Source of the DNA: Escherichia coli
GTDB lineage: Bacteria > Pseudomonadota > Gammaproteobacteria > Enterobacterales > Enterobacteriaceae
Assembly (NCBI RefSeq): GCF_003334765.1
Contig: NZ_QOWT01000010.1
Reading direction: 5' to 3' (one strand)
Length of the DNA: 64,000 bases
Of the stretch, positions 34,730-35,178 are shown in pieces; positions within the stretch are counted from its first letter, which is position 1; every line of letters begins with the position of its first letter. The notes beneath the pieces are model-generated. The model searched no databases. It saw only the letters and a program-made list of their open reading frames with translations, and had not been told where the DNA came from. A program made the position numbers and the translations under genes.

Positions 34730-35178
34730 AATTATAATAAATATTATTGTTGAGTGTTATATTATTATTCCTGTGTGATACATTGAGCAAAGACGCGTTC
34801 ATCTTCGTCAAAGATATTATTAAATGCTGGTTTTGAAAAAAGTTCATCGGATAAGATATAGTCACGAAATAAGTATCTGCTAATATTTTATGATTTCTTT
34901 TTCAGAACGTCGAACGGGATTTTCTTATTTAAGATATCAGAATCTTATGATTCGGGTAAAATTCTAAATAAATCAACATGTCATTAAAATCATCATAGCC
35001 ATTAGCTATTTCGGCTAAAATAGAGACTACATGTCTTCGGTCCATCTCACTTAAGGAGTGTAGTTCCGTTGTAAGTTTTTCCATAGCTTGCACTGCTAAA
35101 TTTCGAACAAGGAATTTTCTGCTGGTAATCTCTAAAAAGATGGCATGGTTTACAATGATTTTTGTTTCCTTTTGATTA

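Follow-up and report, generated by a model that had tools for sequence, protein, structure and literature searches.

The yrhA gene in the Escherichia coli sequence analyzed here (a 64-kb stretch of chromosomal DNA, termed the window) is an uninterrupted allele, and the site occupied by IS1E in the K-12 reference is empty. This observation is correct but ordinary, since all of its elements have already been annotated or published, and an intact yrhA is the norm of the species and nothing special. In the K-12 reference, IS1E is very probably a derived insertion confined to that lineage, and the window displays the corresponding unoccupied target. Taken as a whole, the explanation comprises an ordinary uninterrupted allele, a K-12-specific IS1E, a previously described Hcp-ET1/ETI1 island and a decaying gap next to it, and we consider it very probable. 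No evidence against the unoccupied-site reading arose in this analysis.

The window is in reverse orientation relative to MG1655 and spans the region from the start of rhsB to malT. It very probably derives from the chromosome of a wild-type E. coli that resembles K-12 (phylogroup-A-type), with the locus order ggt-yrhB-yrhD-yrhA-yhhZ-yhhY. The interval flagged in a preliminary description of this DNA lies between yrhB and yrhA and constitutes the left end of an AT-rich block 2.3 kb long; the GC profile is 0.28-0.36 across positions 34600-37150, and the flanks are 50-60% GC. The features of the locus are as follows.

ggt, plus strand, ending at 34407
34445-34729, minus strand, yrhB, 94 aa, Imm35 family
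34730-35178, flagged yrhB-yrhA interval, 449 bp, 30.7% GC, IS-free
34746-37086 (approximate), AT-rich yhhZ-yrhA-yrhD island, 2.3 kb, 28-36% GC
34768-34926, minus strand, pseudogene relic of an 85-aa gene, located as a tblastn match
34929-35084, minus strand, yrhD, annotated 51-codon ORF
35179-35673, minus strand, yrhA, 164 codons from ATG to TAA, intact
35284-35292, minus strand, IS1E target site GACATTAAA, unoccupied and in a single copy, located by comparison with MG1655
35670-36848, minus strand, yhhZ, 392 aa, Hcp (TssD) domain and C-terminal HNH/His-Me nuclease toxin domain
yhhY, minus strand, beginning at about 37085

Several other elements of the window lie outside this locus. Positions 1 to about 296 belong to the 5' part of rhsB, a polymorphic-toxin element of the Rhs type that is cut by the window edge. 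The sole match in an Rfam scan of the whole 64-kb window was the RyhB small RNA (37724-37788, plus strand, RF00057, 83 bits), which is located outside the locus, and none was found in the gap. Secondary BLAST matches revealed a repeat of about 110 nt in three copies (20988-21104, 26813-26929 and 55024-55130), 84-85% alike, which are probably intergenic repeats of a family like ERIC/IRU or BIME. The numbers of putative promoters and terminators detected by scanning were not above those of shuffled sequences.

In terms of insertion-sequence content, the window lacks any trace of IS1. A degenerate pattern describing the IS1 ends (terminal inverted repeats of about 23 bp, GGTRATG..CCAACTTAYTGAT), applied with up to three mismatches, gave no matches in the whole 64-kb window, and no transposase-like ORF or insA/insB was present among the ORFs of positions 32500-37500. 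Similarly, a search for direct and inverted repeats in positions 34400-37200 returned just short AT-rich chance pairs. The preliminary description had reported an AT-rich gap of about 450 bp that was free of insertion sequences, next to a complete 164-codon yrhA frame; each of these statements holds, the frame being the ORF at 35179-35673.

The alignment with MG1655 locates the difference precisely. From the 3' end of yhhZ through yrhA, yrhD and yrhB every base is identical, with zero substitutions in the four genes, save for one block of 777 bp that is found in MG1655 only. This block consists of the 768-bp IS1E, whose ends in MG1655 read GGTGATGCTGCCAACTTACTGAT and ATCAATAAGTTGGAGTCATTACC, and a second copy of the 9-mer GACATTAAA. 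Two copies of the 9-mer thus flank IS1E in MG1655, whereas it occurs once in the window and the target duplication is absent. This 9-bp target sequence is the sole link between the window and the IS1 family, whose inverted repeats, insA/insB and target duplication are all missing. In MG1655 the element is inserted within yrhA after codon 130 (K130), 106 bp outside the flagged interval, and the flagged gap itself is base-for-base the same in the two sequences. The MG1655 yrhA (b3443) is accordingly a pseudogene, read from the alignment as a 130-codon fragment followed by 8 IS-encoded codons, and the window, lacking the element and the second target copy, retains all 164 codons. The preliminary description had stated that K-12 carries at this locus an IS1 copy that disrupts yrhA, and had looked for its absence in the gap. 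The existence of the element and the disruption were confirmed, but its position was not, because IS1E sits in the yrhA ORF and not in the gap. This agrees with a recent report that places IS1E "within the uncharacterized yrhA gene" (PMC12428005, 2025).

The close relationship of the window to MG1655 (99.97% identity, with 15 real SNPs over 64 kb, 1 indel and the IS) raises the alternative that the window itself stems from K-12 and has lost IS1E through precise excision or engineering, such that the intact yrhA is a reversion. The island and the gap are indeed base-identical to MG1655 apart from the IS, and K-12 strains devoid of IS1 have been made (PMC12428005). The 15 SNPs, however, are spread over the 64 kb, and the MG1655 glpR frameshift is absent. 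Moreover, numerous independent isolates of wild, animal and clinical origin, among them RM10410, A14, NCTC9041 and ETEC4073, share 25 kb of the window at 100% identity. The engineered deletions, made by kanamycin-cassette replacement and flip-out, leave an 85-bp FRT scar in the IS1E.fs intermediate (PMC12428005), and no scar is found here. An excised or engineered K-12 origin is thus extremely improbable, and we rejected it on the basis of the SNPs and the identity to wild isolates. As for glpR itself (at about 58256), the window carries one extra base relative to MG1655, and the gene should be intact here.

To gauge how common the empty site is, a 121-bp probe with the IS1E target at its centre was searched against 5,426 complete E. 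coli genomes. The probe matched 3,775 of the 5,426 genomes, and in 3,414 of these 3,775 the match was uninterrupted across the site, at 96-100% identity. Conversely, a 120-bp probe across the left junction between yrhA and IS1E, counted when fully covered, identified the yrhA::IS1 junction in 357 genomes (353 at a stricter E-value limit). Among the matches listed, all of the junction carriers (60 of 60) were K-12 laboratory derivatives, including MG1655, DH5alpha, DH1, C600, J53, NCM3722, RR1 and HMS174. The combination of a duplicated target in K-12, a single copy here and a junction limited to one clade argues that the window shows the pre-insertion state and K-12 the derived insertion. The suggestion in the preliminary description that this is the ancestral state is therefore supported with respect to IS1E. 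The two checks proposed there, alignment to MG1655 and other E. coli genomes and a search for IS1 terminal repeats and a 9-bp duplication, thus gave concordant results: the 777-bp block is confined to MG1655 in the pairwise alignment and the site is empty in 3,414 genomes, while the window holds no terminal repeats and a single 9-mer.

The gene upstream of yrhA encodes a predicted toxin of a described type. The N-terminal part of YhhZ is an Hcp/TssD domain (TIGR03344, 118 bits, cutoff 58.9; Pfam T6SS_HCP, PF05638, 2.5e-11), and Hcp structures in the PDB match residues 3-145. At the C-terminus, Pfam gave a weak HNH match (E 0.013, residues 322-343), and the motif VHHKL..DDGGTN..N..ENEP.HK (of the form HH...N...H) shows no variation between E. 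coli, Citrobacter and Leclercia. YhhZ has been classed as a His-Me finger nuclease, in group 32, an HNH group of Hcp1-family effectors (PMC5714182).

The primary description of the Hcp-ET proteins, including Hcp-ET1/ETI1, is reportedly that of Ma et al. in 2017 (Virulence). Hcp-ET1 is described as a fusion of an orphan Hcp with an HNH DNase; T6SS2 delivers it, and ETI1, encoded directly downstream, neutralises it. The strains concerned are STEC004, O104:H4 C227-11 and EAEC 55989 (PMC6730261; PMC6099711; bioRxiv 10.1101/2024.03.05.583533). Gene order at the 55989 locus is that of the window, i.e., yhhY, tssD (392 aa), yrhA (164 aa), yrhD, yrhB and ggt. As in the window, its orphan Hcp-HNH DNase gene is located between ggt and yhhY with the immunity gene directly next to it. 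YhhZ is identical to the 55989 protein at 391 of 392 residues, the one substitution being A300 against T300. On secondary sources and this sequence identity to the 55989 locus, YhhZ is identified as Hcp-ET1. If it works like the published system, a T6SS2 would inject the Hcp-toxin into competitors, where it would degrade DNA. A genomic-island paper (PMC3309015) ascribes methionine-to-cysteine conversion to yhhZ-yrhAB; this assignment was discarded as an apparent confusion of gene names with the unrelated yrhA/yrhB of Bacillus subtilis.

YrhA matches NCBIfam NF038335 at 122 bits (cutoff 55) over residues 4-163 and is identical to the 55989 YrhA at 162 of 164 residues, differing by D16 against N16 and Y120 against D120. 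The start of yrhA overlaps the stop of yhhZ by 4 bp (ATGA), and YrhA is the candidate cognate immunity protein ETI1, presumably coupled translationally to yhhZ through this overlap. It would protect the producer and its kin, as in the published system. Codon 120 of yrhA (35314-35316) encodes Tyr120 in both the window and the K-12 allele; among 24 aligned YrhA relatives this position is Asp or Asn in 20 and His in 1, and 2 are frameshifted.

The fold of YrhA was approached in several ways. Pfam gave no match to YrhA, including to SMI1_KNR4, and a sequence search of the PDB returned noise alone. An AlphaFold2 model built with 25 homologues was of low confidence (pLDDT 63.7), and the top Foldseek match of this poor model was 3d5p, of the SMI1/KNR4 type, at a weak E of 0.21 and a TM of 0.41-0.49. 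The SMI1/KNR4 label is also carried by some UniRef clusters of YrhA, and the SUKH (SMI1-KNR4) immunity proteins resemble YrhA in being small cytoplasmic proteins encoded right after a nuclease toxin domain. The Foldseek result for the model is at best suggestive of an SMI1/KNR4 fold.

The gap between yrhA and yrhB is not featureless, as it holds both yrhD and a pseudogene relic. The yrhD ORF, annotated in MG1655 and in RefSeq, is open in the window as well as in 55989 and O145. Of the 5 other lineages compared, 3 (AHB30, CUVET21-PYO5 and SCU-387; loci L010, L011 and L012) carry a broken version: internal stops fall at two independent positions, and one of the three has also lost the start codon. 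In all three, yrhA and yhhZ are intact. The divergence of yrhD (3.2-7.1%) is comparable to that of the non-coding spacers (3.5-11.7%), and that of yrhA is 1.6-2.4%. Among 5.8 billion clusters no YrhD homologue was found outside E. coli, the only matches being from E. coli at an identity of at least 90%, and no Shine-Dalgarno sequence is evident upstream of yrhD. In view of the stops in other lineages, the divergence like that of non-coding DNA, the lack of outside homologues and the lack of a Shine-Dalgarno sequence, the standing of yrhD as a constrained gene is doubtful, and these sequence comparisons suggest that it is probably not one.

An alternative would be that a small functional gene or a regulator resides in the gap and that yrhD is a real 51-aa protein, e.g., an accessory immunity protein or a regulatory peptide, in keeping with its annotation in MG1655 and RefSeq and with its open frame in the window, 55989 and O145. 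The broken frames and the lost start in AHB30, CUVET21-PYO5 and SCU-387 and a divergence equal to that of non-coding DNA speak against such a gene. So do the restriction of its homologues to E. coli, the missing Shine-Dalgarno sequence and the lack of an Rfam match, and this alternative appears very unlikely.

Beyond yrhD, positions 34768-34926 match an 85-aa gene of Citrobacter youngae by tblastn (25 of 53 residues identical, 47%; 49-51 bits; E about 1e-12), whereas the maximum over 200 shuffles of the gap was 18.9 bits. In Citrobacter youngae this 85-aa gene directly follows yrhA. The relic was present in all six E. coli lineages examined, with the start codon missing and the frame closing near residue 54, where the island ends, and the relic of the window lineage contains one further in-frame stop. 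None of the E. coli records that we inspected annotates it. With 32 cluster representatives the 85-aa family is a small one, its contigs are short and their gene context is uninformative; the Citrobacter family gave no match in Pfam and no meaningful match in NCBIfam. The DNA between yrhD and yrhB is thus a gene relic rather than plain spacer. Overall, the 449-bp gap would consist of decaying island DNA, containing the lineage-restricted yrhD, the truncated relic of a third gene and the region upstream of yrhB. A more elaborate proposal is that the gap records the stepwise decay of a larger toxin-immunity island (Hcp-HNH, YrhA, the 85-aa gene and others, as in Citrobacter), and that yrhD is a young ORF, born in the decaying DNA and expressed in phylogroup A/B1-type lineages where it is open; we regard this proposal as quite unlikely.

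The locus as a whole appears to be a small, AT-rich, horizontally acquired island encoding Hcp-ET1, and its contents vary among E. coli strains. In JS316 the order is ggt-yrhB-yhhY, the island being absent and replaced by 95 bp; yrhB is thus present without the island. YrhB matches Imm35 in Pfam (PF15567, 4.6e-23) over model positions 1-85 of 85 and is a predicted polymorphic-toxin immunity protein. In O157:H7 the island site is occupied by a DUF4225 gene. The pig isolate HNSQ2209 (NZ_CP137737.1, L007, 2281-3261) carries an IS5-like element, ISKpn26, in the yrhB-yrhD gap, which indicates that IS insertions into the AT-rich spacer do occur. In O145:NM FWSEC0002 (L013, 2570-3752) tssD/yhhZ is frameshifted with internal stops, yrhB is also frameshifted and yrhA is intact; this is an orphan-immunity state.

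Relatives of the pair are found in other genera. Citrobacter youngae encodes, at the same chromosomal site, an Hcp-toxin that is 70% identical and a YrhA homologue that is 66% identical over 151 aligned residues. In Leclercia (GCA_031974335.1, L014, 2845-4501) the C-terminal toxin domain (232 aa aligned, 64% identity) is joined to DUF8093 in place of Hcp; a YrhA homologue is encoded downstream, and an adjoining CDI-type toxin gene is accompanied by Imm63 and Imm70 genes. The adjacency of toxin domain and YrhA is conserved across Citrobacter and Leclercia, as is typical of cassettes that pair a polymorphic toxin with its immunity protein.

The preliminary description had also suggested that the toxin-immunity module is in a functional state. 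The module itself was readily recognized, since it corresponds to the described Hcp-ET1/ETI1 pair, its HNH motif and immunity ORF are intact and it is near-identical to that of 55989. That it is functional is plausible on this sequence evidence, and the toxin activity, immunity function and delivery are attributed to it from the literature on the published pair. In K-12, yhhZ and yrhA are listed among the "promoter islands" in the section on H-NS of an earlier study (PMC3661553), and since the island is also AT-rich, it may be transcriptionally silent.

These considerations bear on a further alternative, according to which the module is intact yet inert in this strain, being an orphaned relic that H-NS silences and that lacks a T6SS to deliver the toxin. 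No T6SS genes are present in the 64-kb window, and K-12 and B strains are said to lack them (PMC6730261), the window being 99.97% K-12-like. The AT-rich DNA and the promoter-island listing (PMC3661553) would fit silencing, decay is observed elsewhere (the frameshifted toxin of O145:NM FWSEC0002 and the broken yrhD of three lineages), and the YrhA of the window carries D120Y. Nevertheless, both ORFs are intact across distant E. coli lineages and yrhA has diverged by 1.6-2.4%, against 3.5-11.7% for the gap. Furthermore, the same toxin/immunity pair has been reported to be active in STEC and O104 backgrounds (PMC6730261; PMC6099711; bioRxiv 10.1101/2024.03.05.583533). We rate an inert module as less likely than not.

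With regard to annotation, the absence of an insertion sequence that happens to be present in a reference should not be flagged as a feature. At this locus it is the K-12 reference that is atypical, its immunity gene being disrupted by an IS and its toxin gene intact, while the Hcp-ET1/ETI1 pair is intact in most E. coli.
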